The notes under the pieces: generated by a model
Databases searched by the model: none
Seen by the model: the letters and a program-made list of their open reading frames with translations, nothing else
What the model was told of the DNA's origin: nothing
Part shown: piece after piece, positions 17,956 through 52,044 of the stretch
Layout: each line of letters begins with the position of its first letter
How positions within the stretch are numbered: the first letter of the stretch is position 1
Source: Candidatus Rokubacteria bacterium 13_2_20CM_69_15_1
GTDB lineage: Bacteria; Methylomirabilota; Methylomirabilia; Rokubacteriales; CSP1-6
Reading direction: 5' to 3'
NCBI GenBank assembly: GCA_001914535.1
Contig: MNCR01000102.1
Location: 1 to 53,459, forward strand
DNA: 53,459 nucleotides
Made by a program: the position numbers and the translations under genes

Positions 17956-18534
17956 ATGGCCGGTCGAGCGCCCAGACTGCGCCGCGTGCGCCCGTCGGGA
18001 CGCTCCGTCAGGTTCGCGATCGTCGCGGCTCGCTTCAACGAGCGCATCACCGCGCGCCTCGTCCAGGGCGCGCTCCGGGCGTTCCGCACCGCGCGCCTCG
18101 CCGACGACGCCGTGGAGGTCCACTGGGTGCCGGGGTCGTTCGAGCTTCCGCAGGCCGCCGGTCACCTGGCCGCGACGGGGCGATACGCCGGAATCGTGTG
18201 CGTGGGCGTGGTCATTCGGGGCCAGACGCCACACTTCGAGCTCGTCGCGCGCGAGGCCGCGGCGGGGATCCGCCAGGTGGCGCTCACCACCGGTGTGCCC
18301 GCGACGTTCGGCGTGGTCACCGCGCTCAGCGAGGAGCAGGCGTGGGCGCGGGCGGGCGGCGAGGTGGGGAACCGAGGCGGGGAGGCCGCCGAGGCGGCGC
18401 TCGCGATGGCCGAGTGGATCAGCCGGCTGCGGAATGGCCGCGGGACCCTACGCCCCGCAAAGTCCGCGGGAGCGGAGCCGCGCGCGCCTCTCGCTGGCCA
18501 CCCACGCCTCTTGCGGCCTCGCGGCACCCGATAA
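17956..18534 (+). CDS. ribH: 6,7-dimethyl-8-ribityllumazine synthase with repeat-derived C-terminal extension
   Basis: ARFN, VPGSFELP, GVVIRGQTPHF, FGV, NRG.EAA; about 34 extra residues after the usual end. Confidence 0.93.
   Translation: MAGRAPRLRRVRPSGRSVRFAIVAARFNERITARLVQGALRAFRTARLADDAVEVHWVPGSFELPQAAGHLAATGRYAGIVCVGVVIRGQTPHFELVAREAAAGIRQVALTTGVPATFGVVTALSEEQAWARAGGEVGNRGGEAAEAALAMAEWISRLRNGRGTLRPAKSAGAEPRAPLAGHPRLLRPRGTR
18466..18534 (+). repeat. Junction repeat family copy fused in frame to the ribH 3' end
   Basis: GAGCCGCGCGCGCCTCTCGCTGGCCACCCACGC..CGGCCTCGCGGCACCCGATAAATG aligns with unit 25153-25221; reads EPRAPLAGHPR. Confidence 0.75.
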
Positions 18535-18951
18535 ATGGGCAGTCGGCGACGGGCGCGGGAAGTCGCGCTGCAGTTCCTCTACCAACTGGATCTGCAGGGC
18601 GAGGACGACCCCGTGCCGCACGAGCAGGAGTTCTGGGCGCGCCACGCGCTGTCCGGCGAGGCCAAGACGTTCGCCGAGACGCTCGTGCGCGGCACGAAGG
18701 CGAGCCAGGCCAAGATCGACCAGATGATCGAGCAGTACACCGAGAACTGGGCCCTCGAGCGCATGGCGGCCGTGGATCGCAACATTCTGCGCGTCGCCGT
18801 CTACGAAATGCTCTGGACGGACGAGGCGCCGGGGAAGGTCGTCATCAACGAGGCGATCGAGATCGCGAAGAAGTTCGGCACGAAGGAGTCGGGCCGGTTC
18901 ATCAACGGCGTCCTCGACCGGATCCACAAAGAGCTGCGACCGGCTTCTTGA
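18535..18951 (+). CDS. nusB: Transcription antitermination factor NusB
   Basis: RRRARE.ALQ.LY, DRNILR, VVINEAIEIAKKFG, FINGVLD; follows ribH. Confidence 0.96.
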   Translation: MGSRRRAREVALQFLYQLDLQGEDDPVPHEQEFWARHALSGEAKTFAETLVRGTKASQAKIDQMIEQYTENWALERMAAVDRNILRVAVYEMLWTDEAPGKVVINEAIEIAKKFGTKESGRFINGVLDRIHKELRPAS

Positions 18952-18959
18952 CCCTTGCC

Positions 18960-19685
18960 GTGCGGTACGCGGTCGTCTCCGACATCCACGGCAACCTCGA
19001 AGCGCTCGACGCCGTCCTAGCCGACGTCGCCGGACGCGCGGACGCGATTCTCTGCCTGGGCGACGTCGTGGGCTACGGCGCCGACCCGCGCGCGTGCATC
19101 GAGCGATTGGCCGAGCGCGCGCAGGTGATCACGGCCGGCAACCACGAGCACGCCGTCGCGGGCCTCCTCGACCTCGACTGGTTCAATCCATACGCACGCG
19201 CCGCGGCTGAGTGGACGCGCGAGCGCCTCGACGACGACCACCGGAGCTACCTCGCCGCGCTGCCGCTGGTGGCCCAGGTGGACGACGCGACGCTCGTCCA
19301 CGCCTCGCCCGACCATCCGGAGGAGTGGGAGTACCTCGTGTCCGCCGAGGACGGCTTCCAGGCGTTCGCCGCGTTCACGACGCGCCTGTGCTTCGTGGGG
19401 CACTCGCATGTGCCGGGCGTATGGTCGCTCGGCTCGACTGGCCCCACGTGGCTCCCGGGCGCGGTGGAGGTCGATCTCGAGCACGGCCGCCGCTACCTCG
19501 TGAACGTGGGGAGCGTCGGCCAGCCCCGGGACCGTGACTCGCGCGCGGCGTACGCGCTCTGGTCCGTCGAGGACGGGGCCGTCGCCATCCGGAGGGTCCC
19601 GTACGACGTCGACGCCGCCCGCCGAAAGATCGTCGCGGGCGGACTGCCGCAGTATCTCGCCGACCGCCTGGCATGGGGCGCCTGA
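18960..19685 (+). CDS. Calcineurin-like metallophosphoesterase
   Basis: SDIHGN, LGDVVGYG, GNHE, H(A/G)SP, GHSH, NVGSVGQPRD motifs; GTG start. Confidence 0.9.
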   Translation: MRYAVVSDIHGNLEALDAVLADVAGRADAILCLGDVVGYGADPRACIERLAERAQVITAGNHEHAVAGLLDLDWFNPYARAAAEWTRERLDDDHRSYLAALPLVAQVDDATLVHASPDHPEEWEYLVSAEDGFQAFAAFTTRLCFVGHSHVPGVWSLGSTGPTWLPGAVEVDLEHGRRYLVNVGSVGQPRDRDSRAAYALWSVEDGAVAIRRVPYDVDAARRKIVAGGLPQYLADRLAWGA

Positions 19686-21208
19686 TCGGAGCATCGGTCT
19701 TGCGTGAGGATCTGGCTCTCGCCGGGCTCCTGTCGGTGAGCGCGATGGGTCTCGCCCTGGCGTTCCCGCGCACCGACTGGGACGGAGTCGCCTGGCTCCT
19801 CGTGGCGCCGGTCATCGTGACGGCGTTGAGCCACGCGCCGCGCGCGGCGCTCGCCTGGGGCTGGTTCTTCGGCTCCGTGTTCTTCCTGACGCTCCTCCGG
19901 TGGCTTGACCATACGTTCAGGGTGTATAGCGCCATCCCGTGGCCGGCCACCTGGCTGCCGATCGTCGCGCTCGCGGCGTACTGCGGGCTCTACGTCGGTG
20001 GTTTCGCATGGGCGGTGTCCTGGATCGGCAGGCGGCGCGCCGCCGGAGTCGCCCTGGCGGCGGCGCCCTTCCTCTGGGTGACCGGTGAGTGGGTGCGGTC
20101 CCACCTCCTCGGCGGGTTCCCCTGGGGCACGCTCGGTTACTCGCAGTATCTAAGGTTGCCGGTCATCCAGATCGCCGAGCTGGGAGGCGTCCACGCCGTG
20201 TCGTTCGTTCTGGTCGCGGTGAATGCCGCGGTCGCGGGCTGTCTCGTGCTGCCGTGGCGCGGGGCGCTCGCCGGGGTAGCGCTCGGTGGAACGCTGCTCG
20301 CGGCGACGCTCGCGTTCGGGAGCGCGAGGCTCGCCGAGGCGCCGGGCGGCCCGGGCGAAGTCACCGTGGCCATCATGCAGCCGTCGATCGAGCAGCCGTT
20401 GAAGTTCGATCCGACTCACGCGGCGACGACACTCGGGATCTACACCTCGCTCACCCGGCTCGCGAGCGTCGAGCGCCCGGACCTGGTCGTGTGGCCCGAG
20501 ACGGCGGCGCCGATGGCGCTCCGGCGCGACCCGCGGCTGGTCGATGCCCTCAGCACCCTCTCAAAAACTCTCAAGGTCCCGCTTCTCGTGGGCTCGATCG
20601 ATGCTAATGATACGACTCCGACGAGGCTGACTAATTCTGTGTTTTTATTGACTGAAGGAGGTATCGTAGACAGGTACGATAAGATCCACCTCGTCCCGTT
20701 CGGAGAGTTCGTCCCCCTCTCGCGTCTGCTCGGGTTCATCCGGGGCTGGGCCGAGTTCATCGGCGAGCTCGAGCCCGGCTCGCGCGCGGTGGTATTCCAG
20801 GGCCCGCCCGCGCCGTTCGGTGTCGTAATCTGTTACGAGGGGATTTTCCCGGAGCTCGTGCGCGAATTCGTGAGAGGTGGAGCGCGCTTGATGGTGAACG
20901 TGACGAACGACGCCTGGTTCGGCCGCACCGACGGTCCGTGGCAACACCTCGCCATGTACCCCTTCCGGGCCGTCGAACATCGCACGGCCGTCGTGCGGAC
21001 AGCAAACACCGGCGTCTCCGCCTTCATCGCGCCTTCCGGGCAGATCCTCCGGCGGCTGTCGCTCTACCGCCGCGCCGTCATGGCCGAGCGCCTGCCGCTC
21101 AGGGTCGGCGCGACGGTCTACACGCGGTTCGGTGAGTGGCTCGCGTATCTATCCCTCGGTGTGACCGTGGGCACGCTCGCGGCGAGCGCGCGCAGGGGGC
21201 GGCGTTAA
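19673..21208 (+). CDS. lnt: Apolipoprotein N-acyltransferase
   Basis: Multi-TM N-terminus, GGFPW, catalytic triad WPE / YDK.HLVPFGE / ICYE, TNDAWFG, RTANTG; exact start uncertain (alternative TTG 19700). Confidence 0.95.
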   Translation: MGRLIGASVLREDLALAGLLSVSAMGLALAFPRTDWDGVAWLLVAPVIVTALSHAPRAALAWGWFFGSVFFLTLLRWLDHTFRVYSAIPWPATWLPIVALAAYCGLYVGGFAWAVSWIGRRRAAGVALAAAPFLWVTGEWVRSHLLGGFPWGTLGYSQYLRLPVIQIAELGGVHAVSFVLVAVNAAVAGCLVLPWRGALAGVALGGTLLAATLAFGSARLAEAPGGPGEVTVAIMQPSIEQPLKFDPTHAATTLGIYTSLTRLASVERPDLVVWPETAAPMALRRDPRLVDALSTLSKTLKVPLLVGSIDANDTTPTRLTNSVFLLTEGGIVDRYDKIHLVPFGEFVPLSRLLGFIRGWAEFIGELEPGSRAVVFQGPPAPFGVVICYEGIFPELVREFVRGGARLMVNVTNDAWFGRTDGPWQHLAMYPFRAVEHRTAVVRTANTGVSAFIAPSGQILRRLSLYRRAVMAERLPLRVGATVYTRFGEWLAYLSLGVTVGTLAASARRGRR

Positions 21209-22312
21209 TGCTCGGCGAGCTCAAGCGCGACGTCGCCGACCTCGCGGCGCGGGTCAACGAGCTCCGGGGGCATCTTTGACATCCCGGCGAAGGAGCAGCG
21301 GCTCGCCGCGCTCGAAGGGGAGATGGCGTCGCCCGCCTTCTGGGAGGACAACCGCCGCGCGCAGGAGCTCATCCGCGAGCGCACGGAGCTCAGCCGGGGC
21401 GTCAGTCGGCTGAAGGAGCTGGCGGCGCGCGCCGAGGACCTCACCGTGTTCCTCGAGCTGGCGGCAGAGACGGACGACGGAAGCCTCGACGCCGAGATCG
21501 CCACCGGCATCGCGAGCCTCCGCAAGGACCTCGACGAGTTCGAGCTGAAAGTCATGATGTCGGGGCCGCACGACATCAAGGCGGCGGTCCTCTCGATCCA
21601 CCCGGGCGCGGGCGGTACGGAGTCCCAGGACTGGGCGCAGATGCTCCTCCGGATGTACCTCCGCTGGTGTGAGCGCGCGGGGCTCAAGGCGGAGGTCGTG
21701 GACCTTCTTCCCGGAGACGAGGCCGGGATCAAGTCGGCGACCGTCGAGATCACGGGCGAGTACGCCTACGGCTTCCTCAAGGGCGAGACGGGCGTGCACC
21801 GGCTCGTGAGGATCTCGCCGTTCGACGCCTCGCGCCGTCGGCAGACGAGCTTCGCGTCCGTCGCGGTCGTCCCGGAGGTGGACGACGTGGAGGTCAACGT
21901 GCGGGAGGACGAGATCCGGGTGGACGTCTTCCGAGCCTCCGGTCCCGGCGGCCAGGGGGTCAACACCGCCGACTCGGCCGTCCGCGTCACGCACCTGCCG
22001 ACCGGCATCGTCGTCCAGTGCCAGAACGAGCGGTCGCAGCTCCGCAACCGCGACACGGCGATGCGAATCCTCAAAGCGCGGCTCTACGAGCTCGCGCACA
22101 AGAAGCAGCGCGAGGAGCTCGCCGAGCTCACCGGTGCGAAGAAGGAGATCGCCTTCGGCAGCCAGATTCGCTCGTACACGTTCCATCCCTACCAGCTCAT
22201 CAAGGACCATCGGACGGGGGTCGAGATCGGCAACGTCGAGGCGGTGATGGACGGCGACCTCGACGAGCTGATCCGGGCGTATCTGCTCTGGGTCCGCGGG
22301 CGTGAAGGATAG
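21208..22312 (+). CDS. prfB: Peptide chain release factor 2, +1 programmed frameshift at codon 23/24
   Basis: ATG 21208 (MLGELKRDV...GHL) ends at CTT TGA C (21274-21280); the +1 frame continues DIPAKEQ... with SPF anticodon mimic and GGQ motif. Confidence 0.97.
21265..21280 (+). promoter_or_regulatory. RF2 autoregulatory +1 frameshift site
   Basis: CGGGGG-CAT-CTT-TGA-C: internal SD-like sequence 3 nt before the slippery CTT TGA, as in the canonical prfB site. Confidence 0.95.
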
Positions 22313-22355
22313 CGAGGGTGGCCGTGCGAAGGGGAGCGGAACGCGAGGCGAGCGT

Positions 22356-23861
22356 GTGAATCCAGACGACGCGAACGAGCTGATCCGCGAGCGGCGTGCG
22401 AAGCTCACGGCCCTACGGGCCAAGGGGGTCGATCCGTTCGGCGGCCGCTTCCCGGTGACCCACTGGGCGCTGCCGCTCGCCGACCGACTCCGCGACGCGC
22501 GCGACGAGGAGCTCAAGGGGTTCGGCCCCGTGAGCCTGGCCGGACGGGTCGTCGCCCTGCGCGACCACGGCAAGTCGTGCTTCGGCCACCTCATGGACTA
22601 CACGGGGCGGATCCAGCTCTACGCCCGTGAAGACCAGCTCGGCGACGACTACGCGCGCTTCACCGGTCTCGACCGCGGTGACTTCATCGGCGTCACCGGC
22701 GAGATGTTTCGGACCCGGACCGGCGAGCTGACGGTCGCCGTCAAGGCGTTCACGTTTCTCGCCAAGTCGCTCCGGCCGCTGCCCGAGAAGTGGCACGGCC
22801 TCCGCGACGTCGAGACGCGCTACCGGCAGCGGTACGTCGACCTGATCGTCAACGCGGAGGTACGGGCGATCTTCCTGCTCCGCGCCCGGATCGTGGCGGC
22901 GATCCGGACGTTTCTCGACGCGCGCGGCTTCCTGGAGGTCGAGACCCCGATGATGCACCCGATTCCTGGGGGCGCCATCGCGCGGCCGTTCAAGACGCAC
23001 CACAACGCGCTCGGCATGGACCTGTATCTCCGGATCGCGCCGGAGCTCTACCTCAAGCGGCTCGTCGTCGGCGGCTTCGAGCGTGTCTACGAGATCAACC
23101 GGAACTTCCGGAACGAAGGGATCTCGACCCAGCACAATCCCGAGTTCACGATGCTCGAGTTCTACCAGGCGTACGCCGACTACACGGACCTGATGGACCT
23201 GACCGAAGCGCTGTTCACGGAGCTCGCGCAGTCGGTCCGCGGGACGCTCAGGCTCACCTGGGGCGAGCACGTCATCGACCTCACGCCGCCCTGGCGGCGG
23301 CTCGGGTTCTTCGATGGTCTCTCGGAGGCCCTCGGCATCCGGGTCACGCCGGAGACCGACGCGGCGTCGCTCTCCCGCGCCGCGGAGGCGCGCGGCGTGG
23401 GCGCGGCCGAGGGGCCGCCGTGGAAGCTCTGGAAGGAGGTCTTCGAGCAGCTCGTCGAGCCGACGCTCGTGCAGCCCACGTTCGTCATCGACTTTCCCGT
23501 CGCGCTTTCGCCGCTCGCCAAGAAGAAGCGCGAGGCGCCGGCGCTTGTGGACCGCTTCGAGCTTTTCATCGGTCGGCGCGAACTGGCCAACGCGTATAGC
23601 GAGCTGAACGACCCGATCGACCAGCTCGCCCGCTTCCGCGAGCAGGCGCAGCTCCTCGCGCGCGGCGACGACGAAGCCCACTGGCTCGACGAAGACTACG
23701 TCCGCGCGCTCGAGTACGGCATGCCGCCGGCGGCGGGCGAGGGGATCGGCATCGACCGTCTGGTGATGCTCTTCGGCGACCTGCCGTCGATCCGCGAGGT
23801 CATCCTCTTCCCGCACCTCAGGCCCGAGGCCGGCCGGACGGGCGAGGGCGACGTCCCGTGA
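22356..23861 (+). CDS. lysS: Lysine--tRNA ligase (class II)
   Basis: OB-fold (AGRV..R..GK), [38 protein letters not shown]; GAGG before GTG 22356 (alternative GTG 22302). Confidence 0.97.
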
Positions 23862-25090
23862 GGTGCCAGCTGCCGTTCGAGCTGTTCCTCGGCCTGCGCT
23901 ACCTGCGCGCCCGTGGCCAGCGGACGAATTTGTCGCTCTTCGTGTGGATCGGCGTCGGTGGAGTCTTCCTCGGCGTGGCGGCCCTCATCGTCGTGCTCGC
24001 CGTGATGACGGGCTTCCAGGACGGGATCCGCGAGAAGATCATCGCGGCCAACCCACACCTGCTCGTCTATCAATCGGGCGGGGCCGGGCTCGCCGACCCG
24101 AGCGCGGTCGTCGCCCGGATCGCCGCGGTCCCGGGCGTCCGCCTGGCGACGCCGTTCGTGCACCAGCAAGCGCTCTTCACCACGTCGGCCGGCGGCTCCC
24201 ACGGCGGCCTCATCCGCGGCATCGACCTCCGCACCCCCGCGGTGGCCCGGGACATCGGCTCGCAACTGCGCAGCGGGAGCCTCGAGCCCGTCGAGCACGG
24301 CGAGGCGGCGATCCTTCTCGGGCGCGAGCTCGCCCGTGTGCTCGGCGTCCTGCCCGGCGACACGGTGACGGTGATCTCGCCAAAGGGTGCGCTCACGGCC
24401 GTCGGGATGGTGCCGAAGATGCGCCGGTACACCGTCGCGGGGACGTTCGAGGTCGGCATGTACGAGTTCGACGCCTCGTTCGCCTACCTCGCGCTGCCGG
24501 TGGCGCAGGAGTTCGCCGGGCTCGGCGGCGTCACCGGGATCGAGGTCAAGCTGGCCGACCCGTTCGACGCCAAGCGTGTGGGACGGGCGGTCGCCGGCGC
24601 GCTCGGGTTCCCGTACTGGGTTCGCGACTGGATGGACATGAACCGAAGCCTCTTCGCGGCGCTCCAGCTCGAGAAGCTCGCGCTCTTCGTGATCGTGACG
24701 ATCATCGTCCTCGTGGCGGCGTTTGCCATCATCGGCCACCTTGTCCTGCTCGTCGCGGACAAGCGCAAGGAGATCGGGGTCCTCAAGGCGATCGGCGCCT
24801 CACGGCAGTCCGTCGCCGTGACGTTCTTCGCCGTGGGGATGGGGATCGGTGTGGCTGGCACCGTCGCCGGGAGCGCCGTGGGTCTCTTGATCATCTGGGC
24901 GCAGAACACCTTCAAAGTGATCCGCCTCGCGAGCGACGTCTACCAGATTGACTACCTGCCGATGAAGCTGACGCTGTCGGACGGGCTCATGGTGGTCGGC
25001 GCGACGCTCTTTCTGTCGTTTCTGGCGACGATCATCCCGGCGCGCCGGGCGGGTGCCCTCGAGCCGGTCGACGTCTTGAGGTACGAATGA
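23858..25090 (+). CDS. lolE: Lipoprotein-releasing ABC transporter permease (single LolC/E, LolF-like)
   Basis: [55 protein letters not shown]. Confidence 0.92.
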
Positions 25091-25283
25091 AGCCACGGGC
25101 TCCTCTCTCAGGCCACGCCCGGTCCGACCCGGCCCCGCGGACCCCGATACAAATGAAGCTACGCGCGCCTCGCTCAGGCCACCCACGGTGTGCGTCGGCC
25201 TCGCGCAGCCCGATACAAATGAAGCCACGGGCTCCTCTCTCAGGCCACGCCCGGTCCGACCCGGCCCCGCGGACCTGGGTGGA
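25087..25283 (+). repeat. Three tandem 66-bp type A units of the junction repeat family
   Basis: Units start with ATGAAG at 25087, 25153, 25219; units 1 and 3 identical for 57 nt; in-frame 22-aa peptide repeat. Confidence 0.95.
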
Positions 25284-25287
25284 ATGA
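25087..25287 (+). CDS. Putative 66-aa mini-ORF built from three 22-aa repeats ([22 protein letters not shown]...)
   Basis: ATG overlaps the lolE TGA (ATGA); its own TGA overlaps the next mini-ORF ATG; translation not proven. Confidence 0.45.
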   Translation: MKPRAPLSGHARSDPAPRTPIQMKLRAPRSGHPRCASASRSPIQMKPRAPLSGHARSDPAPRTWVE

Positions 25288-25337
25288 GCCGCGACATGCG
25301 GAACGCAGCCGGGGCGCACCTCGTCTCGGGCCAATGA
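25284..25337 (+). repeat. Type B junction repeat copy, mini-[20 protein letters not shown]
   Basis: 25295-25333 is identical (39 nt) to 43831-43869; ATGA overlaps at both ends, the 3' one being the lolD start. Confidence 0.93.
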
Positions 25338-26029
25338 CCGAGCCGCTCCTGGTCGCCGAAGATCTCGAAAAGGAGTATCGCGCGGGCCCCGAGGTCGTGC
25401 GCGTCCTCCGGGGCGCGAGTCTGGTCGTGCGCCCGGGCGAGATCGTTGCGCTCGTGGGCGCGTCCGGCGTCGGCAAGTCCACGCTCCTCCACCTCCTGGG
25501 CGCGCTCGAGCGGCCCACCGCGGGCCGTGTCTTCTTCCGGGGTGAGGAGTTGTTCGCGCGCGGCGAGGCGGGGCTCGTGCGCTATCGGCGGCAGGACGTC
25601 GGCTTCGTTTTCCAGTTTTACAACCTGCTCGGCGAGCTGTCGGCGCTGGAGAACGCCATGATCCCGGCGCTCCTCCTGCGCAAGCCGTCGGCGGAGGCCC
25701 GGGAAATTGCGGCGGCGGCTCTCGCCGAGGTCGGCCTGGCCGACCGTCTCCACCACCGCCCGGGCGAGCTGTCGGGAGGGGAGCAGCAGCGCGTCGCGGT
25801 CGCGCGGGCTCTCATCAACGGCCCTAAGCTGATCCTGGCCGACGAGCCCACGGGCAACCTCGACCCGAAGACGAGCGAGATCATCTACGACCTGTTCGGG
25901 AGGCTCCAGGCGGAGCGCGGCATCGCATTCCTCGTCGCGACCCACAATCCCGACCTCGCGCGGAAGGCCGAGCGGGGGTACCGGCTGATCGAGGGGCGAG
26001 CCCGGGAGATCGACACGGGTGGCGGCTGA
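25334..26029 (+). CDS. lolD: Lipoprotein-releasing ABC transporter ATPase
   Basis: [19 protein letters not shown] (LolD-like motif), [23 protein letters not shown]. Confidence 0.92.
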
Positions 26030-26129
26030 GCGCGCTCGCGGCCGGGGGCGCCTCTGCGAGAAGATGCGCGCCGATTCGCGCAGTTACTCGCGTGGCAGAA
26101 AAACGCTAGCCCGGGTTTCCCCCCTAGGC

Positions 26130-28659: not shown

Positions 28660-28688
28660 GGCGCAGTTTCCACACGCCTGAGCGCTCG

Positions 28689-42696: not shown

Positions 42697-43823
42697 AGAT
42701 CTCGGTCGTCGCCTTCGACCTCTCTGACAACGCGACCGGCCGTGCCGATCTGCTCGCCCGTCTGCTGGCCGCGCGCTGGGACGTCGAGGTCGTCGGCCCC
42801 CGATTCGGTCCGTCGCTCTGGAAGCCCGCCGAGGGCGGCCCGGTCAAGCACCGGACCGTGCGGGCGGGGAAATATCCAGGGTTTCTCCGACGGCTGCCCG
42901 CGCTGCTCTCGCTGGTCGACGGCGACCTCATCGTCGCGTCGAAGCCGCGCCCGACGAGCTACGGCCTCGGCCTGCTGGCCCGGTCACGGCGTCGGCGCCC
43001 GCTGCTGCTCGACATCGACGACTGGGAGCTCGGGTTCCTCTATCGGTCTGGGGTCTGGGGCCGCGTCGGCCGGGCGCTCGACCTCGCCGATCCCAACGGG
43101 CTCGCGTGGACATGGGTGACGGAGCGGTTGGTCGGCCGCGCAGACGCCCTCACGGTCGCCTCACGCTTCCTCGCCGAGCGCTTCGGCGGCGTCCTGCTCC
43201 CGCACGTGCGCGACACCGATGCGTGGGACCCGGCGCGTTACGATCCGGCGAGCGCGCGGGCGACGCTCGGCGTCGCCGCGGAGAAGGTCGTCATGTTTCT
43301 CGGCACGCCGCGGGCCTACAAGGGCGTGGACGATCTGGTCGAGGCGGTCGGGCTCCTCGGGCCGGGTGTGGTCTTGGCCCTCGTCGGCGCGAATGGGGAG
43401 CGCCGTGCCGCGGGACGCTGGGCGGCGCTGCCGCACGTGAGGGTTTTCGGCGAGATCCCGTTCGACGAGGTTCCGCGTTACCTCATCGCCGCCGACGTCG
43501 TGGCGGTGCCCCAGCGGGCGACGATGGACACCATCGGCCAGGTGCCGGCGAAGCTCTTCGACGCGATGGCGCTCGGGCGGCCGATCGTGTCCACGGCGGT
43601 CTCGATGATCCCCGAGATCCTCGATGGCTGCGGTCTCATCGTGACGCCGGGGGATCCGCGTGGGCTCGCGACGGCGATCCGACGCCTGCTGGAGCGCCCC
43701 GACGAGGCCAGAGGGCTCGGGGAACGCGCCCGCCGGCGCTGCCACGAGCGCTACAGCTTCCGTGCCGCCCGAGCGACGTTGTTCCCCCTCGTCGAGCGCC
43801 TGACCCGGGGATCAGTGAAATGA
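42693..43823 (+). CDS. Glycosyltransferase family 4
   Basis: DIDD, G....KG.DDL, PAKLFDAMALGRPIVST.V..IPE; GTGA overlap start. Confidence 0.87.
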   Translation: MKISVVAFDLSDNATGRADLLARLLAARWDVEVVGPRFGPSLWKPAEGGPVKHRTVRAGKYPGFLRRLPALLSLVDGDLIVASKPRPTSYGLGLLARSRRRRPLLLDIDDWELGFLYRSGVWGRVGRALDLADPNGLAWTWVTERLVGRADALTVASRFLAERFGGVLLPHVRDTDAWDPARYDPASARATLGVAAEKVVMFLGTPRAYKGVDDLVEAVGLLGPGVVLALVGANGERRAAGRWAALPHVRVFGEIPFDEVPRYLIAADVVAVPQRATMDTIGQVPAKLFDAMALGRPIVSTAVSMIPEILDGCGLIVTPGDPRGLATAIRRLLERPDEARGLGERARRRCHERYSFRAARATLFPLVERLTRGSVK

Positions 43824-43961
43824 GTAGCGCCATGCGGAACGCAGCCGGGGCGCACCTCGTCTCGGGCCACCCCCCGAAGGTGCCGGCCCCGCGGCGTCGG
43901 TGAAATGAATCGCGCGATGCGGAACGCAGCCGCGGCGCACCTCGTCTCGGGCCACCCGTGA
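43820..43961 (+). repeat. Two tandem type B junction repeat copies; mini-ORFs MSSAMRNAAGAHLVSGHPPKVPAPRRR (43820-43903) and MNRAMRNAAAAHLVSGHP (43905-43961)
   Basis: ATGCGGAACGCAGCCG(G/C)GGCGCACCTCGTCTCGGGCCA at 43832 and 43917 (85-bp period), the same as at 25296; ATGA overlap upstream, GTGA overlap downstream. Confidence 0.95.
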
Positions 43962-45070
43962 AGCTCCTGATCATCGCCCGCCCCTTCGTGTTCCACGGCG
44001 GCGTCGAGCGGGCGACGGCCGGTCTCGTGGACGCGCTGGTGCAGCACGGCTACGACGTGCACCTCCTGAGCCCCCGCGCCCAGGTGCCCATACCCGGCGT
44101 CACGCGACACGTGCTCCCGCTCCCGCCGCTCCCGTCGGCGGCGCGTGCCCTGGCCCTCGCCGCGCTCGCGCGCGTCGTGGTGTCCCGTGGCGGATGGGAC
44201 GTCGTGCAGAGCCACGAGCGTACGCTCCGCCAGGACATCTATCGGGCGGGGGAGGGGTGCCATCGGGCTTACCTCCACAGCATGGGCGACGCGGGGCGTC
44301 GTCGCCCGCTCTTTCACCGGATCGTCCTCGGGCTCGAGCGGCGCGTGTTCGCGGCGACCCCGCATGTCGTCGCGATCTCCCGCCGCGGCGCGGCCGAGAT
44401 CGCCGACCTCTACGGCGTCCCGGGTGAGCGTCTCTCGGTCGTGTACAACGGCGTGGACCTCGAGCGCTTCCACCCGAAGAACCGCGACGCCGAGCGGCGC
44501 GCCGCGCGTGCCGAGGCCGGGGTCGCCGCCGACGCGTGGACCCTCCTCTTCGTCGGCAGCGGCTTCGAGCGCAAGGGGCTCGGCACCGTGGTGGAGGCGC
44601 TCGCGCTCTGCTCGGATCGCACGAGCCGCCTCATCGTGGTCGGGCGGGGCGCCACCCAGGCGTTCCGAGAGCAGGCCGCGCGCGTCGGAGTCGACAGCCG
44701 TATCGTGTGGCTCGGTCCTCGGCGCGACGTCGAGCGGTGGTACGCCGCCGCGGACGTCGCCGTTCTGCCGAGCCGCTATGAGCCGTTCGGCAACGTCCAT
44801 CTCGAGGCGCTCGCGTCGGGCGTCCCGGTCGTTGCGAGCGCCGTGGCCGGCGGCGCCGAGGCGATCGCGGACGGTCGGGGCGGCGCGATCGTGGATCCGC
44901 GCGACGCGAGGGCCGTCGTGGCGGCCCTCGGGCGCCTCCGCGAGCGGAACCCCGGCGAGGTCACCGACGCCGCACGCCGCGCCGCGGAGCCCTTCACGTT
45001 CGCCGCGCAGGTCGCCGGATTCGGCCGGATCTATGCGCAGATGGCAGCCCCAAGGTGCGATTTTTCTTGA
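43958..45070 (+). CDS. Glycosyltransferase family 4, WaaG/RfaG-like
   Basis: GGVER, QSHER....DIYRAGEGCH, YNGVD, FVGSGFERKGL, YEPFGNV.LEALASGVPV. Confidence 0.88.
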   Translation: MKLLIIARPFVFHGGVERATAGLVDALVQHGYDVHLLSPRAQVPIPGVTRHVLPLPPLPSAARALALAALARVVVSRGGWDVVQSHERTLRQDIYRAGEGCHRAYLHSMGDAGRRRPLFHRIVLGLERRVFAATPHVVAISRRGAAEIADLYGVPGERLSVVYNGVDLERFHPKNRDAERRAARAEAGVAADAWTLLFVGSGFERKGLGTVVEALALCSDRTSRLIVVGRGATQAFREQAARVGVDSRIVWLGPRRDVERWYAAADVAVLPSRYEPFGNVHLEALASGVPVVASAVAGGAEAIADGRGGAIVDPRDARAVVAALGRLRERNPGEVTDAARRAAEPFTFAAQVAGFGRIYAQMAAPRCDFS

Positions 45071-45095
45071 GAAATCCGGACGTGCGACTTACACT
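45067..45095 (+). promoter_or_regulatory. Putative sigma70-type internal promoter for leaderless gmhB
   Basis: TTGAGA (45067-72), 17 nt, TACACT (45090-95), 7 nt, GTG 45103; T-tract immediately upstream. Confidence 0.6.
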
Positions 45096-45102
45096 CGGCG
45101 GC

Positions 45103-46691: not shown

Positions 46692-46701
46692 CGCCCCCGA
46701 C

Positions 46702-47166: not shown

Positions 47167-48215
47167 ACATCGTGCTCGTCAAGCTCTCCTCGCTCGGCGA
47201 TGTCGTCCACGCGCTCCCGGTCGCCGCGGCGCTCCGTGCGCGGCTCCCACGCGCGCGCCTGAGCTGGATCGTGGAGCGCCGCGAGGCGGCGTTGCTCCGG
47301 GGCAACGGGGTCCTCGACGCGGTCGTGGATGTGGACACGCGCGGCTGGCGCCGCGCGCGCACGCCGGCGGACCTGGTCCGGGCCGGCGGCGCGCTCGGCG
47401 AGCTCGCGCGCGGTCTTCGCGCGGCGCGGTTCGACGTCGCCGTGGACCTCCAGGGGCTCGTGAAGAGCGGTCTCGTGACGGCGGCCACGCGCGCGCCGCT
47501 GCGGATCGGCTTCGCCGCGCCCCTCTGCCGCGAGCGCCTCAGCGCGCTCTTCACGAACCGACACGTGACGCCGCCCGTGACCGCGCGACACGTGGTCGAG
47601 CAGTACCTCGCGGTGCTCGAGCCGCTCGGCGTCCGGCCCACCGCGATCGCGTTTCCGCTGCCCGCGGATCCCGCGGCGGAGGCGCGGGTCGACGCATTCT
47701 TCATGAGGTCCGGCGTGAAGCCCCGTGACCGGCTCGTCGTCCTGCTCCCGGGCGCGGGCCGGGCCGACAAGCGCTGGCCCGTCGACCGCTTCGCCGCCCT
47801 CGCCAGGTCCCTCACCGCGGACGCCGGCGGCTCGGTGCTGGTCGTGTGGGGCCCCGGCGAGCACGATACGGCGACGGCGATCGTGGAGTCGGCGGGTGGC
47901 GGCCGCACGCGGCTCGCGCCGGCCAGCACGATCGAGGAGCTCATCGCGCTGCTCCAGCGGGCGTCGGTCGTCGTCGGGGGCGACACCGGGCCCCTCCACC
48001 TGGCCGCCGCCCTCGGCGTCGCGTGCGTCGGGCTCTACGGACCGACCGCGGCGGAGAGAAACGGCCCCTGGGGACAGGTGAATCGGGCGCTGCAGAGCGC
48101 CGACGGCACGCTCGCCCGGATCGGCGTGACGGAGGTGCTGGCGCGCGTGACCGCGCTGCTCGAGTCGGCGTGGCAGTGCGAGCCGACGCCGTCCGCCTGT
48201 CGGGGCGCGCCGTGA
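47163..48215 (+). CDS. waaC: LPS heptosyltransferase I (GT9)
   Basis: VKLSSLGDVVH.LP, DLQGLVKS, H.VE, K.WP, DTGPLHLAAALG, LYGPT. Confidence 0.92.
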   Translation: MNIVLVKLSSLGDVVHALPVAAALRARLPRARLSWIVERREAALLRGNGVLDAVVDVDTRGWRRARTPADLVRAGGALGELARGLRAARFDVAVDLQGLVKSGLVTAATRAPLRIGFAAPLCRERLSALFTNRHVTPPVTARHVVEQYLAVLEPLGVRPTAIAFPLPADPAAEARVDAFFMRSGVKPRDRLVVLLPGAGRADKRWPVDRFAALARSLTADAGGSVLVVWGPGEHDTATAIVESAGGGRTRLAPASTIEELIALLQRASVVVGGDTGPLHLAAALGVACVGLYGPTAAERNGPWGQVNRALQSADGTLARIGVTEVLARVTALLESAWQCEPTPSACRGAP

Positions 48216-48967
48216 ACCGACCCACCATCTCCGCGGTCGTCATCACGTTCAACGAGGAAGAGCGGCTCCGCCCGTGTCTCGAGAGCCTGGCCTGGGTCGA
48301 CGAGGTCGTCGTGGTGGACGCCGAGTCGAGCGACAAGACGGTCCAGATCGCGCGCGAGTTCACGGACCGCGTCTGGGTTCGGCCGTGGCCCGGGTTCGCC
48401 GGCCAGAAGAACTTCGCCATCGAGCAGGCGACCGGGGACTGGATCTTCTCCGTCGACGCGGACGAGGAGGTCCCGCCGGAGCTCAGGGTGGAGATTGGTG
48501 CGGTGCTCGAGGGCCGAGGCGAGAGTGTCCAGGCCTACCGGGTGCCGCGTCGGAACATCTTCTGGGGGCGCTGGGTGCGCCACGGCGGCCTCTATCCAGA
48601 CTGGCAGCTCCGGCTGTTCCGGCGTGGCCTCGGCCGGTTCGTGGACCACTCGGTTCACGAGTCGGCGCAGGTGACCGGAACCGTCGGCCGGCTCCGGGCG
48701 CCGCTCGTCCACCGGAGCTACCGCGGCGTGGCAGATTTCCTGGCCCGCGCCGACCGGTACTCCACGCTGGCCGCCGAGGCATGGATTCGGAGCGGCCGGC
48801 CAGCCAGGCGCTCGGACCTGGTCTTCCGGCCGCTGGGCAGATTCCTCGGGATGTACGTGGCTCGCGCCGGGTTCCTCGACGGTTGGCGAGGCTTCCTTCT
48901 GGCCTGCCTCTACGCGTACTATGTGCTCATCCGTTCGGCGAAGGTTTGGGAGAGAGTGAGGGGCTGA
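48212..48967 (+). CDS. Glycosyltransferase family 2 (KdtX/WaaE-like LPS beta-1,4-glucosyltransferase)
   Basis: NEE..L..CL.S, VVD..S.D.T, W.GF..QKN.A, DADE, YPD...RLF, VHE, GFLDG..G. Confidence 0.9.
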   Translation: MNRPTISAVVITFNEEERLRPCLESLAWVDEVVVVDAESSDKTVQIAREFTDRVWVRPWPGFAGQKNFAIEQATGDWIFSVDADEEVPPELRVEIGAVLEGRGESVQAYRVPRRNIFWGRWVRHGGLYPDWQLRLFRRGLGRFVDHSVHESAQVTGTVGRLRAPLVHRSYRGVADFLARADRYSTLAAEAWIRSGRPARRSDLVFRPLGRFLGMYVARAGFLDGWRGFLLACLYAYYVLIRSAKVWERVRG

Positions 48968-49956
48968 TGGCGGGGACGAGGGAGCGGGTGCTGTCGGGGA
49001 TGCGGCCGAGCGGCAAGGTCCACCTGGGAAACTATCTCGGCGCGCTCGACAACTGGGTGAAGCTGCAGGACGCGTACGACTGCTACTACTTCGTCGCGAA
49101 CTGGCACGCCCTCACCGACGACACCGACACGGCCACGGTCCCGGGTGACACGGTGGAGATGGTGGCGGACTGGCTCGGCGCCGGCCTCGACCCGCAGCGC
49201 TCGACCCTCTTCATCCAGTCGCAGATACCCGAGCACGCCGAGCTCCATCTGCTCTTCTCGATGGTCACCCCGGTGGGCTGGCTCGAGCGCGTACCGACCT
49301 ACAAGGAGCGGATCGAGGCGCAGGGGATCGCGTCGCCGTCCTATGGGCTGCTCGGCTATCCGCTGCTCCAGGCCGCCGACATTTTGATGTACAAGCCCCG
49401 CTGGGTCCCGGTCGGCGCGGATCAGGTGCCGCACGTCGAGCTGACGCGCGAGGTGGCGCGGCGCTTCAACAACGCGTTCAAGCCCGTGTTCCCCGAGCCC
49501 GAGGCCAAGCTCACCCAGATTCCCAAGGTGCCGGGAACCGACGGGCGCAAGATGTCGAAGTCCTACGACAACGCGATCTACCTCTCCGACCCGGCGGACG
49601 CGGTCATCCGGAAGGTCAAGCCCATGATGACCGACCCGGCGCGCCGACGGCGGACCGACCCGGGCAATCCCGACGTCTGCCCGGTGTTCGACCTGCACAA
49701 GATCTTCACCCCCGTCGCCGAGCGCGAGGCGTGCGCGACAGGCTGCCGCACGGCGGGGATCGGCTGCCTCGACTGCAAGGACGTGTTGCTCCGTCACCTC
49801 GTCCCGAAGCTCGACGGGATCCGTGAGCGCCGCACGAAGTTCGCCGAGCGGCCAGACGTGATCGTCGACATCCTGCACGAGGGCGGGAGGCGTGCCCGGA
49901 CGGTGGCGCAGGCGACGATGGAGGAGGTCCGCGCGGCGGTGAACCTCACGCCATGA
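48967..49956 (+). CDS. trpS: Tryptophan--tRNA ligase
   Basis: SGMRPSG..HLGN, FIQS, YP.LQAADIL, VPVG.DQ, KMSKS. Confidence 0.97.
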   Translation: MAGTRERVLSGMRPSGKVHLGNYLGALDNWVKLQDAYDCYYFVANWHALTDDTDTATVPGDTVEMVADWLGAGLDPQRSTLFIQSQIPEHAELHLLFSMVTPVGWLERVPTYKERIEAQGIASPSYGLLGYPLLQAADILMYKPRWVPVGADQVPHVELTREVARRFNNAFKPVFPEPEAKLTQIPKVPGTDGRKMSKSYDNAIYLSDPADAVIRKVKPMMTDPARRRRTDPGNPDVCPVFDLHKIFTPVAEREACATGCRTAGIGCLDCKDVLLRHLVPKLDGIRERRTKFAERPDVIVDILHEGGRRARTVAQATMEEVRAAVNLTP

Positions 49957-50726
49957 CGGCGGACGCGCCGAAGATCCTCGACACGTCCCGGGACTTCACG
50001 CTCCGCGTGGGGGACTTCGAGGGCCCGTTCGACCTGCTGCTGCATCTGTGCCGCACCAACGAGATCGACCTGGCGCGCCTGCCGGTGCGGACGATCACCG
50101 ACCAGTACCTGGCACACCTCGAAGCGATCGAGTTCCGCGACCTCGAGGCCGCCGGCGGATACCTGGTCATGGCCGCCACGCTCATCTACCTCAAATCCAA
50201 GCTGCTCGTGCCGCCCGATCCGAGCGAGACCGAGGCGCTGGACGAGGAGGGCGAGGCGCTCCGGCTCGAGCTCGAGGAGCGGTTGCGCGCCTACGCGCGC
50301 GTGAAGGGTCTGGGGGCGTGGCTCGCGGCGCGGGAGGCGGAGCAAGCGCTCCTCTGGGGTCGCCCGGTGGGCGCCCTGCCGCCGCTGGAAGAGGTTCCGC
50401 TGGAGGACCTCTCGGTCCACCTGGTCGAGCGGGCGGTCCGGCGGCTGATCGACGAGCAGCTCCGTCGTCGGCCGCGCGAGGTCGAGCCGAATCCGCCCTC
50501 GATCCTCGAGCGCATGACCGAGATCCTCACGTTGCTCCGCGACGCGTGGTCGCTCCTGTTCTCGTCGCTCGTCGGCGGTGAGCGCCGCCGCTCCGAGGTC
50601 GTCGTCACCCTGCTCGCGGTGCTGGAGCTGGTCCGTCTCGGGCGGATCCGTACCCAGCAGACCGAGCTCTTTGGCGAGATCGTCATCGAACGCCAGACCG
50701 GAGAGACCCATGCCGGCTCCAATTGA
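49953..50726 (+). CDS. scpA: Segregation and condensation protein A (kleisin)
   Basis: FEGPFDLLLHL, ITDQYL, YLVMAATL..LKSKLL, LAVLEL...G.I...Q...FGEI. Confidence 0.95.
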   Translation: MTADAPKILDTSRDFTLRVGDFEGPFDLLLHLCRTNEIDLARLPVRTITDQYLAHLEAIEFRDLEAAGGYLVMAATLIYLKSKLLVPPDPSETEALDEEGEALRLELEERLRAYARVKGLGAWLAAREAEQALLWGRPVGALPPLEEVPLEDLSVHLVERAVRRLIDEQLRRRPREVEPNPPSILERMTEILTLLRDAWSLLFSSLVGGERRRSEVVVTLLAVLELVRLGRIRTQQTELFGEIVIERQTGETHAGSN

Positions 50727-51309
50727 CATCCTGGAAGCCCTGCTCTTCGCCTCGGACACCCCACTCGAGCCCGAGCGCATCCGTGAAGTGCTCGAGCTGC
50801 CGGGCGTCGCCGCCGCGCGTGAGCTCGTCGAGGCGCTGCGCTCGCGCTACGCCGACCGTGGCCTCCAGATCGTCGAGGTCGGCGGGGGGTATCGCATGGT
50901 CACGCGCCCGGAGCTCCAGCCCTGGCTCGTCCGGCTCACACGGTCGCGGACGAAGCAGCGCCTCTCGCGGCCCGCGCTCGAGACGCTGGCGATCGTCGCG
51001 TACAAGCAACCCGTGTCGCGCCCCGAGGTGGACGCGATCCGCGGCGTGAACTCCGAGGCCGTCCTCGAGAGTCTGCTCGAGCGGCGCCTCATCCGCATCC
51101 CGGGCCGCAAGGACGCGCCGGGACGGCCGTACCTTTTCGAGACCACGCGCGAGTTCCTCGTCGCGTTCGGCCTGCGCGACCTCGGCGACCTGCCGAAGGT
51201 CGAGGGCGAGCTCCTGGTGCCCGAGCTGGCCGTCGTGGCCGAGCATGGCGAAGCTGAGGCTCAACAAGATCCTGGCCCAGGCGGGGCTGACGTCCCGGCG
51301 GGGAGCTGA
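50710..51309 (+). CDS. scpB: Segregation and condensation protein B
   Basis: LEALLF, GGYRM.TRP, LSRPALETLAIVAYKQP.SR.E.D.IRGVNS, PGRP.L..TT.EFL..FGL..L.DLP. Confidence 0.96.
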   Translation: MPAPIDILEALLFASDTPLEPERIREVLELPGVAAARELVEALRSRYADRGLQIVEVGGGYRMVTRPELQPWLVRLTRSRTKQRLSRPALETLAIVAYKQPVSRPEVDAIRGVNSEAVLESLLERRLIRIPGRKDAPGRPYLFETTREFLVAFGLRDLGDLPKVEGELLVPELAVVAEHGEAEAQQDPGPGGADVPAGS

Positions 51310-51976
51310 CGGGCTGATCGCCGGCGGCCACGTCGCCGTCAACGGCGTGGTCACGCGGAGCCAAGCCACCCTCGCCGATCCCGACGTCGACCGCATCACC
51401 GTCGATGGCCGACCGGTGCCGCCGTCGGAGGCGAAGCACTACCTGCTCCTCAACAAGCCTCGCGGCTACGTGACGACCCTGGCGGATCCCCAGGGACGTC
51501 CCGTGGTCGCCGACCTCGTCAGGCCCGTCGGGGCGCGTCTCTATCCGGTCGGCCGTCTGGACTGGGACGTCGAGGGTGCGCTCCTGCTGACCAACGACGG
51601 CCCCTTGACCCACCGGCTTCTCCACCCGCGCTACGTGCTTCCGCGCGTCTACGAGGCGGACGTGGAGGGGCGCGTGACGTCCGGCGCGCTCGCCCGCTGG
51701 CGCCGGGGTGCCGTGCTCGCCGACGGCCCGGCGACGCCCGCCGCCGTCGCGCTCGTCCGCTCGGGCGCCGAGCGGAGCCGTCTCAGGCTGACCTTCACCG
51801 AGGGGCGCAAGCACGAGGTCAAGCGCTACTGCGAGGCTCTGGGCCACCCGGTCGTGCAGCTCAAGCGGGTCGCCTTCGGCCCGGTGGCGCTCGGCGCCCT
51901 CGCTCCGGGCGCCGTCCGCCGGCTCACCCCGCGCGAGCTCTCCGCGCTCCGGGCGGCGGTCGCCGACCGACCGTAA
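51245..51976 (+). CDS. rluB: 23S rRNA pseudouridine synthase, RsuA family (RluB-like)
   Basis: RLNK.LA.AG..SRR S4 domain, LNKPRG, PVGRLD (catalytic Asp), LLLTNDG, EGRKHEVKR; overlaps scpB by 65 nt. Confidence 0.9.
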   Translation: MAKLRLNKILAQAGLTSRRGADGLIAGGHVAVNGVVTRSQATLADPDVDRITVDGRPVPPSEAKHYLLLNKPRGYVTTLADPQGRPVVADLVRPVGARLYPVGRLDWDVEGALLLTNDGPLTHRLLHPRYVLPRVYEADVEGRVTSGALARWRRGAVLADGPATPAAVALVRSGAERSRLRLTFTEGRKHEVKRYCEALGHPVVQLKRVAFGPVALGALAPGAVRRLTPRELSALRAAVADRP

Positions 51977-52044
51977 CGCAGCCCCGTGCGCCTAGAGCGG
52001 GCCACCCACGGTCCACGCCGACCTCGCGGACCTCGCTACAATAG
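51976..52044 (+). repeat. Type A junction repeat copy directly after the rluB stop
   Basis: ACGCAGCCCCGTGCGCCTAGAGCGGGCCACCCACGGTCCACGCCGACCTCGCGGACCTCGCTACAATAG aligns without gaps to the 66-bp units; reads (T/M)QPRAPRAGHPRSTPTSRTSLQ-stop. Confidence 0.85.

Follow-up and report, generated by a model that had tools for sequence, protein, structure and literature searches.

A mobile repeat family of Candidatus Rokubacteria that probably works at operon junctions in the manner of mycobacterial interspersed repetitive units

Introduction

Mycobacterial interspersed repetitive units (MIRUs), which are reportedly to be attributed to Supply et al in 1997, are oriented like the genes that flank them. 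According to excerpts from a 2011 review, they measure 40–100 bp, occur in 40–50 copies, are transcribed as part of polycistronic mRNA, and hold G-C-rich internal inverted repeats; the ends of the MIRU open reading frame (ORF) overlap the adjacent genes, and tetranucleotide direct repeats distinguish filled from empty sites (PMC3184786). Excerpts from a 2025 review add that MIRUs seem to be capable of moving and to insert at start codons, and that the MIRU ORF is coupled to the gene with a −4 spacing, the impact on expression being minimized (PMC12548453). For Mycobacterium tuberculosis H37Rv, 41 MIRU loci are given in part of a further article (PMC2734929). Here, we describe a repeat of comparable design from contig MNCR01000102.1 of Candidatus Rokubacteria bacterium 13_2_20CM_69_15_1 (assembly GCA_001914535.1), a stretch of 53,459 nt that was analyzed at its full length and is referred to as the window. 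With a probability of roughly 0.7, we consider the repeat to be a lineage-specific, non-autonomous mobile family of Candidatus Rokubacteria, adapted to operons and working like the mycobacterial MIRUs.

No account of such genomic repeats was found in those parts of the Rokubacteria literature to which searches for Rokubacteria and repeats, or for ATGA and translational coupling, led. The terms repeat, intergenic, and palindrom are absent from one study of the group (Becraft 2017; PMC5712423).

Results

Distribution and anatomy of the repeat

The source genome (G000) is a fragmented metagenome-assembled genome (MAG) of 2.80 Mb in 146 contigs (69.6% G+C, 76% complete), of which the window is the whole contig C58. 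An nhmmer profile built from the eight copies reported for the window identified 108 copies at E ≤ 1e-3 on the contigs of this genome. This number is a lower bound, as a divergent relative of the family (C92:18996-19125) escaped the first profile; this relative, …CGGAGCCG.ACGTGCCTGTGA.TCGCCACCCTCGCCC…GATACATGA, contains a complete relay of 9, 21, and 15 codons. The 108 copies fall into 71 clusters: 44 consist of one copy, 20 of two, 4 of three, and 3 of four, that is, 27 clusters hold two to four units. Adjacent units are more similar to each other than units from different loci (median identity of 80% versus 62%).

When the core pattern was sought in 61 genomes (the source genome and 60 relatives), it was present in 12, one of them an unpublished genome (G011). 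All 12 belong to one family of the order (11 of the 36 genomes there, plus the source genome), and none of the 24 genomes from other families of the order contained the pattern; the reversed pattern, which served as the control, matched once in the 61 genomes (in G047). A scan of public genomes yielded matches almost only in MAGs titled Candidatus Rokubacteria, Rokuibacteriota, or Methylomirabilota. Within the unit, the dominant variants of a hypervariable stretch differ between genomes, which defines genome-specific subfamilies and, together with the local similarity of units, is the pattern expected of local duplication plus lineage-specific bursts.

Alignment of all copies revealed a shared core, which begins with AGCC and, after a few variable bases, continues with GC.CCT, three to four further bases, and TC(A/G)GGCCACCCAC; the hypervariable stretch of 9–10 nt follows, and then the 3′ part, CCGG(C/G)C(C/T)CGCGG, ∼5 nt, CG.T.CAATGA. 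The GGCCACCCAC portion is nearly invariant across copies, and the core is G+C-rich and partly self-complementary. A first-pass annotation, made from the letters of the window alone, had regarded the copies as one sequence family; this family, however, comprises two main unit types. Units of type I are spaced 65 or 66 nt apart and begin with ATGA(A/C)GCC, those of type II are spaced 86 or 87 nt apart and carry an additional 5′ module (TGGAATGAGAAGCGACATGCGGAACG). Both have NTGA at the 5′ and 3′ ends, and in both the 5′ ATG is in phase with GGC-CAC read as Gly-His. This frame is shared by the 3′ TGA where the spacing is 65 or 86 nt, and by the 3′ ATG where it is 66 or 87 nt; for all the difference in their 5′ modules, the two unit types thus have a common reading frame. 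Measured from GGCCAC, the 3′ NTGA lies at +41 nt, with the stop in frame, in 41 copies of the source genome, at +42 (ATG in frame) in 12, and at +40 in 2; the respective numbers in the other genomes are 53, 23, and 2. The Gly-His frame had already been proposed for the window copies, and it holds in the ORFs that cross them, for the copy in ribH by its coordinates. Copies of a third set have ATGA at neither end and make up the majority of those outside co-directional junctions; NTGA is present at neither end in 29 of the 103 copies that were classified.

In several unrelated loci and genomes, a module of 46–48 nt (GACTCAC...TTCGCAC) was observed at one and the same place within the repeat, between GGCC and (A)CCCAC, which in effect makes for a longer, modular type of unit. 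Two relatives have it at the permease/ATPase junction described below (L125 in G001 and L127 in G002), and it is furthermore present at L024, L010 (G005), L110, L082, and L047; it was not found in the source genome.

Placement, orientation, and reading frame

Gene coordinates stem from a crude codon-usage gene caller built for this analysis, the starts of which were checked against orthologous empty sites at four junctions only. Among the classified copies, those located between co-directional genes are in the sense of their neighbors 65 times and antisense to both only 4 times (binomial p = 3e-15), and in the 8-kb loci of other genomes the ratio is 101 to 8. Units within an array, and genomes related to each other, share ancestry and are not independent, which means that this p-value and those given below are overstated; the direction of the effect was, despite this non-independence, the same in every data set. 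The copies of the window had been described as never lying inside a domain or in inverted orientation, which genome-wide proved to be a strong sense bias, far from random orientation, but not an absolute rule: 7 of the 103 copies are antisense inside a predicted gene, and 1 of the 71 clusters has its units on both strands.

Altogether, 20 copies overlap predicted genes, and for most of them the codon score falls on one side of the repeat, the ORFs concerned probably being over-extended gene calls; for the copies on C16, C39, C67, and C78, the covering gene has good codon scores on both sides. The only inverted pair (+ then −; C90:7616-7815, locus L144) is situated inside a predicted ORF of 564 amino acids with an ABC transmembrane domain at residues 2–269 and, at residues 408–444, the first 37 positions only of an ABC ATPase domain; possibly, this is a fused ABC transporter gene that has been disrupted or wrongly called. 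At locus L143, a hydantoinase B/oxoprolinase gene (C141:13413-15209) has copies of the repeat in direct orientation at both its 5′ and its 3′ junction, which is most simply viewed as two occupied operon junctions rather than a composite element.

The capacity of the repeat to connect genes by successive ORFs was quantified in co-directional intergenic regions of 60–400 nt under a strict rule, by which only −1 (NTGA) overlaps are allowed and the chain has to reach the called downstream start. In the source genome, such a chain was complete in 16 of 38 regions with the repeat, compared with 24 of 394 regions without (Fisher p = 7.5e-9), and some of these 24 control chains represent genuine small genes or further, similarly designed repeats; of the remaining repeat-bearing regions, one was fused in frame and one overshot the start. 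Under a looser rule, the chain was complete in 27 of 38 regions with, and 94 of 394 without, the repeat. The strict chain was also enriched at the loci of other Rokubacteria, where it was complete in 29 of 67 repeat-bearing regions (plus 8 fused and 1 overshooting), compared with 9 of 76 (p = 2.4e-5). When only those strict chains are considered that are not halted for want of a start, arrival in phase outnumbers overshoot 17:1 in the source genome and 37:1 in the others.

The same preference is evident within arrays, irrespective of the genome. Of the 95 spacings between anchors of neighboring units, taken mod 3, 55 belong to class 0, 33 to class 2, and only 7 to class 1 (22, 12, and 2 in the source genome; 33, 21, and 5 at the other loci). 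Class 1, which is the sole class that would bring ribosomes out of phase into the next gene, is thus clearly short of the one-third expectation (p = 2.7e-9). Furthermore, a tetramer resembling a Shine–Dalgarno (SD) motif precedes only 1 of 29 gene starts that abut a repeat, compared with 271 of 706 other co-directional genes (p = 3.7e-5).

The small ORFs do not resemble genes, and are none: their codon log-likelihood per codon is −0.04 (type II) and −0.24 (type I), compared with +0.46 ± 0.08 for real genes, and their GC3 (G+C content at third codon positions) is 0.84 and 0.79, respectively, compared with 0.93. This lack of a coding signature would also be in line with the small ORFs never being translated, in which case the ATGA ends would be a mere target-site duplication, downstream genes would initiate independently, and the apparent relay would be a consequence of unit lengths being 2 or 0 mod 3 by chance. 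Approximately 62% of the genes of the source genome have no SD-like motif anyway, many of the chains are incomplete, and founder effects could fix unit lengths. However, two structurally different unit types, their variants differing by 1 nt, and truncated copies all shun the frame-breaking class (7 of 95), and the excess of in-phase over overshooting chains (17:1 and 37:1) speaks against this explanation as well, which we therefore regard as quite improbable.

A second, unrelated tandem repeat of ∼45 nt also joins genes via GTGA and ATGA overlaps in the source genome, but at just two loci (C39:6377-6470 and C84:17305-17408), with chains of 3-15-15 and 21-15 codons.

Filled and empty sites

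Seven junctions were compared with those of five relatives (G001, G002, G003, G005, and G010). Two single-unit insertions, on C127 and C145, are present in the source genome only. At empty sites, the sequence is ...ATGA..., in which the stop of the upstream and the start of the downstream gene overlap; at filled sites, it is ATGA, 61 nt, ATGA. The same tetranucleotide is thus found at the left flank and at the right end of the element, and the target site ATGA is duplicated at C127 and C145 alike. The C127 site is empty in all five relatives, the C145 site in G001 and G002 (G003 and G010 allowed no comparison there, and G005 had no match).

The two arrays of the window vary likewise. The junction between the permease and ATPase genes (at 25087) is a bare GTGA in G003 and a bare ATGA in G005, has a conventional spacer in G010, and is occupied by differing arrays in G000, G001, and G002. 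At the glycosyltransferase junction (at 43820), G003 (GTGA) and G010 (ATGA) have no repeat, the site is occupied in G000, G001, and G005, and G002 retains a remnant with an internal deletion. Empty orthologous sites, which the first-pass annotation had suggested looking for, therefore exist at C127, C145, and both of these junctions.

Structure and mobilizing enzymes

Despite the partly self-complementary core, no sign of a conserved RNA structure was obtained. Five sense and two antisense copies showed no extra fold stability compared with shuffled sequences (z between −0.93 and +1.29), RNAalifold on 15 copies gave −2.08 kcal/mol with 0 compensatory pairs, and on 106 copies it gave short local stems only. 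Stems drawn by eye (GCC..CG.G with C.CG..GGC, and GCACCT with AGGTGC in type II) were discarded, as their registers shift among copies and the 3′ partner varies uncompensated. Rfam, which had been named as a check, produced no match at gathering score in the window and none at E ≤ 1 in 25000-25400; in 43750-44000, the one match at E ≤ 1 was antisense and at chance level (E = 0.88).

These data, and those on the empty sites, bear on whether the repeat might be a domesticated cis-regulatory spacer, whose number and sequence the host would maintain to set coupling efficiency or mRNA stability, that is, a tuner rather than a selfish passenger. The copy between ribH and nusB is kept in four genomes of the genus and recognizable in two other genera, unit number at one and the same junction varies among congeners, which could modulate coupling, and the frame rules are maintained. 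Yet the same junctions are bare (ATGA or GTGA) in G003, G005, and G010, subfamilies defined by genome-specific variable regions are typical of recent bursts, neither RNAalifold nor the fold z-scores indicated a conserved structure, and the one region scanned for terminators (51900-52200) contained no terminator-like site. Domestication of the family is, consequently, unlikely.

No mobilizing enzyme had been noticed in the window, and of three transposase families profiled across genomes, none tracked the repeat. The Y1 transposase domain (Y1_Tnp, PF01797), which is the one carried by REP-associated tyrosine transposases (RAYTs), had no match in the seven repeat-rich genomes G000, G001, G002, G003, G005, G010, and G011; three of these relatives are 98–100% complete. 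It is present in 16 of the 61 genomes searched, repeat-free ones included. IS110-type transposase (PF01548) was rejected as the mobilizer: it is encoded in G000–G003 and G010 and in many repeat-free genomes, and the repeat-rich G005 and G011 lack it. Y2_Tnp (PF04986) was rejected because it did not correlate with the repeat. Terminal inverted repeats were not found in the two clean insertions, where only 2–6 of 14 terminal positions are complementary in any of the 5 possible rotations, and partial profile matches suggested no full-length element bearing the repeat ends, for which no systematic search was made.

An asymmetric element without terminal inverted repeats, with ATGA both to its left and at its right end, with strongly strand-specific orientation, and with a G+C-rich, partly self-complementary core could also be a single-strand element of the repetitive extragenic palindrome (REP)/RAYT or IS200/IS605 kind. 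A Y1 (HUH) enzyme would then insert it 3′ of ATGA, the element itself ending in ATGA; its orientation would agree with that of genes because insertion is strand-specific, and the relay of ORFs would arise incidentally. This is contradicted by the distribution of PF01797, which was not found in seven repeat-rich genomes but was found in repeat-free ones, by the paucity of inverted pairs (1 of 71 clusters), which are the hallmark of REPINs (REP doublets forming hairpins), and by hairpins that are no more stable than those of shuffled sequences. Moreover, strand-specific insertion leaves the avoidance of spacing class 1 mod 3 unexplained. We thus consider a Y1-type element very unlikely.

The only IS110-family transposase gene found in the source genome (C141:20003-21622, locus L146; DEDD_Tnp_IS110, 9.6e-32) is located 14 nt past a four-unit type II array, in convergent orientation, and the last unit of this array has ATAGAAAGAAATG instead of ATACAATGA at its 3′ end. 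The insertion sequence (IS) may have inserted into or beside the repeat; no IS110–repeat adjacency was seen in the three relatives inspected.

The copies in the window

On the window contig, the profile has exactly eight matches, all on the + strand (18468-18538, 25081-25154, 25149-25221, 25217-25286, 25294-25341, 43830-43908, 43916-43965, and 51968-52044), and an independent repeat detection clusters the same eight copies (families D1 and D5), in agreement with the positions originally given. That all are on the + strand is correct, but has little meaning, since 47 of the 48 called genes of the window are on this strand as well, many of them joined by 4-nt overlaps; the sole call on the − strand (50683-51264) is low-scoring and may be spurious. 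By Pfam, the copies are flanked by the genes of RibH and NusB, by those of a permease (FtsX/MacB_PCD) and an ABC ATPase (lolE/lolD-like), by two genes for group-1 glycosyltransferases, and by one for a pseudouridine synthase. The pentamer AATGA is found at all seven junction positions named in the first-pass annotation (25086, 25152, 25218, 25283, 25333, 43819, and 43904); its total of 13 occurrences on both strands of the window is not above chance (shuffle mean of 20).

The stop/start chains described for the junctions at 25087 and 43820 can be read directly from the sequence. At the former, ATG 25087 of the first type I unit (25087..25152, + strand, 66 nt) overlaps TGA 25088-25090 of the permease gene (FtsX/MacB_PCD, lolE-like). 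The second type I unit (25153..25218, +, 66 nt) is in frame with the first, reading being uninterrupted from ATG to ATG, and the third (25219..25283, +, 65 nt) has its 3′ end swapped for a type II 5′ end (GGTGGAATGA). One ORF of 66 codons (25087-25287) spans these three units of 66, 66, and 65 nt, and its TGA (25285-25287) overlaps ATG 25284 of a 3′-truncated type II unit (25284..25337, +). The ORF of this unit, 17 codons in length, runs to TGA 25335-25337, which in turn overlaps ATG 25334 of the ABC ATPase gene (lolD-like).

At the latter junction, ATG 43820 of a type II unit (43820..43903, +) overlaps TGA 43821-43823 of the upstream glycosyltransferase gene, and the ORF of 27 codons starting there stops at TGA 43901-43903, within GTGA. 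A link of two codons, GTG AAA TGA (43900..43908, +), ties this unit via GTGA and ATGA overlaps to a 3′-truncated type II unit (43905..43961, +) with an ORF of 18 codons (ATG 43905 to TGA 43959-43961), the stop of which overlaps GTG 43958 of the next glycosyltransferase gene. The chain is thus one of 27, 2, and 18 codons, every joint being GTGA or ATGA, and both truncated copies of the window close with NTGA in frame, overlapping the start that follows.

The two remaining copies deviate from this design. The one at 18468..18538 (+), which is partly degenerate and has no 5′ ATGA, forms an in-frame C-terminal extension of RibH (ORF 17986-18534, 182 amino acids): the DMRL_synthase domain comprises residues 8–143, the tail consists of a spacer and the repeat, and the TAA stop (18532-18534) directly abuts the nusB start (ATG 18535). 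This copy is old; it is present in all three congeners (G001–G003) and recognizable, though degenerate, in G005 and G010. The copy at 51971..52044 (+), after the TAA (51974-51976) of the pseudouridine synthase gene, is unique to the source genome, has ACG instead of a start codon, ends in TAG (52042-52044) in the usual frame, and has no coupled downstream gene. The site is devoid of the repeat in G001, G002, G003, G005, and G010, and the gene ends with GTGA or CTGA beside ...CTTGCC in G001–G003. Just 3′ of the copy, and outside the repeat, a promoter-like site (TTGCCC, 18 nt, TATAAT; 52051..52080, +) with 10 of 12 matches, 0.0 being expected in shuffles, is conserved in relatives.

As the source genome is a fragmented MAG in which runs of N adjoin repeats on two contigs (C65 and C82), the tandem units might have arisen from short-read mis-assembly or faulty binning, and no single Logan contig covers the entire 25087-25337 array. 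Contigs from two DNA runs of different studies nevertheless tile this array, overlapping each other, with 0–5 differences, and bridge the joints between gene and unit and between unit and unit; the family is found in MAGs from many independent projects, and orthologous arrays vary sensibly between genomes. An artefact is thus exceedingly improbable. Contigs from RNA runs (X15 and X17), compared with 24700-25700, match the permease gene at its 3′ end as well as pieces of the repeat flanked by other loci, and contain no bridge from gene via repeat to gene.

Discussion

The arrangement in the clean insertions suggests how the repeat could insert with little polarity. A unit, ∼61 nt long in type I and ∼82 nt long in type II, would land at an NTGA overlap and become flanked by ATGA on either side. 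The upstream gene would keep its stop, the 5′ TGA, and the ATG overlapping it would open a short, meaningless ORF across the unit. This ORF would either stop at the 3′ TGA that overlaps the downstream ATG (65 or 86 nt, 2 mod 3) or continue, in the same frame, through the unit or gene that follows (66 or 87 nt, 0 mod 3). Because NTGA is regenerated on both sides, ribosomes would be handed on by termination-reinitiation, with the consequence that the insertion would cause little polarity and be nearly neutral. Tandem duplication would then raise the number of units at a site, and truncation would erode them, the shortened copies persisting where an in-frame NTGA remains.

That the units are relay cassettes with a start and a stop of their own, as the first-pass annotation had proposed, is supported by the relay statistics, the spacing mod 3, the filled and empty sites, and the lack of SD-like motifs in front of repeat-abutting genes. 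On this reading, the small ORFs would be translated, and coupling would be what selection preserves. It is also selection, rather than targeting, that would confine the copies with NTGA ends to junctions.

Several observations weigh against this interpretation. The chain is incomplete in 22 (strict rule) or 11 (loose rule) of the 38 repeat-bearing regions of the source genome. There, only ∼38% of the genes have an SD-like motif; SD-independent initiation is therefore common, which weakens the argument that coupling is required. NTGA is missing from both ends in 29 of the 103 copies, and 11 of the 103 are antisense to their neighbors or to a predicted gene covering them; the junction design therefore belongs to subfamilies and not to every copy. 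The gene calls are crude, with starts verified at just four junctions, and the p-values are inflated by the shared ancestry of units and genomes. Finally, ATGA occurs 13,240 times in the source genome, and selection against insertions elsewhere could alone yield the location at junctions.

Of the 1,776 co-directional junctions in the source genome, 363 (one fifth) are 4-nt NTGA overlaps, and coupling is accordingly widespread in it. Tentatively, and with more doubt than confidence, one might go further and assume that targeting to junctions is intrinsic. In that case, a machinery relying neither on a Y1 transposase nor on terminal inverted repeats would recognize ATGA overlaps, and relay repeats would constitute a general, convergent class of operon-dwelling mobile elements of high-G+C bacteria in at least two phyla (MIRUs in Actinomycetota and the present family in Rokubacteria). 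If so, the 25-year-old question of how MIRUs move would become tractable by comparative genomics of abundant, genome-specific subfamilies.

Irrespective of the mode of insertion, the design of MIRUs, a repeat in a 4-nt stop/start overlap that hands ribosomes on, recurs in an unrelated, uncultured phylum from soil. The family offers dozens of natural comparisons of termination-reinitiation, in which one and the same gene pair has zero, one, two, or four relay ORFs in sister genomes, as well as a broad comparative data set for seeking the mobilizer of such elements. For annotation, it is relevant that the units cause small ORFs to be called spuriously and proteins to be falsely extended at the N- or C-terminus, such as by the 39 residues of RibH beyond its domain. 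The units may also fragment short-read assemblies, because repeats adjoin runs of N on two contigs. They could, furthermore, act as strain markers for Rokubacteria in soil metagenomes, akin to variable-number tandem repeats.

Among the known systems, miniature inverted-repeat transposable elements (MITEs; for example, Correia/NEMIS elements and those derived from IS630 or IS5) share with the repeat that they are non-autonomous, measure 50–150 bp, and duplicate a short, specific target (here ATGA); their copies are co-transcribed with neighboring genes, which may apply to the repeat as well. In contrast to them, the repeat has no terminal inverted repeats and no cognate full-length IS that was identified, and it is strictly oriented with respect to genes. 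Rickettsia palindromic elements (RPEs) insert in frame inside coding regions. The present repeat can likewise be read within an ORF without destroying it, as the C-terminal tail of RibH and the 66-nt units reading into the next start illustrate, but it is mainly intergenic and supplies its own stop and start, and with 65 or 86 nt it would shift the frame of a gene.

The resemblance to REPs and the arrangements derived from them (bacterial interspersed mosaic elements, BIMEs, and REPINs) is broader: both are short, G+C-rich, partly palindromic, high in copy number, and mostly extragenic, both form lineage-specific subfamilies, and both often lie at the 3′ ends of genes inside operons. The repeat differs in that its repeat-rich host genomes have no RAYT/Y1 gene, that inverted pairs are confined to 1 of 71 clusters, and that its hairpins are no more stable than those of shuffled sequence. 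To our knowledge, start and stop codons in fixed phase are not a feature of REPs.

The closest match is the MIRU. The first-pass annotation had assumed a different type of element and recognized no named family, which can no longer be upheld, as the same design is described in the excerpts from the two MIRU reviews (PMC12548453 and PMC3184786). By those descriptions and that in PMC2734929, MIRUs are units of 40–100 bp, often in tandem and intergenic within operons, to which the spacings of 65/66 and 86/87 nt of the Rokubacteria units correspond; they have a small ORF that overlaps, at −4 spacing, the stop and the start on its two sides, direct repeats of a tetranucleotide (here ATGA) where a site is filled, with empty sites in relatives, G+C-rich internal inverted repeats, and copy numbers that vary between strains. 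A mobilizing enzyme is not named in these excerpts, just as none was found for the Rokubacteria repeat.

There are also differences. The host phylum is Rokubacteria/Methylomirabilota rather than Actinomycetota, and the likeness is one of described design; since the host is a member of the Rokubacteria, the repeat is unlikely to be a MIRU by descent. The Rokubacteria repeat is denser, with 108 copies in 71 clusters on 2.8 Mb compared with 41 loci in H37Rv, a factor of ∼4 if a size of ∼4.4 Mb is taken for the M. tuberculosis genome. It has two unit types with distinct 5′ modules that share one frame and the near-invariant GGCCACCCAC core, and a sizeable subfamily without NTGA ends lies outside operon junctions. 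The MIRU features that can be read from sequence, namely, unit size and tandem arrays, orientation, the overlapping ORF, and filled and empty sites, are nonetheless all present. The repeat is, therefore, not a categorically new element; it belongs to a known and little-studied kind, to which it adds a new family from a phylum not previously represented.

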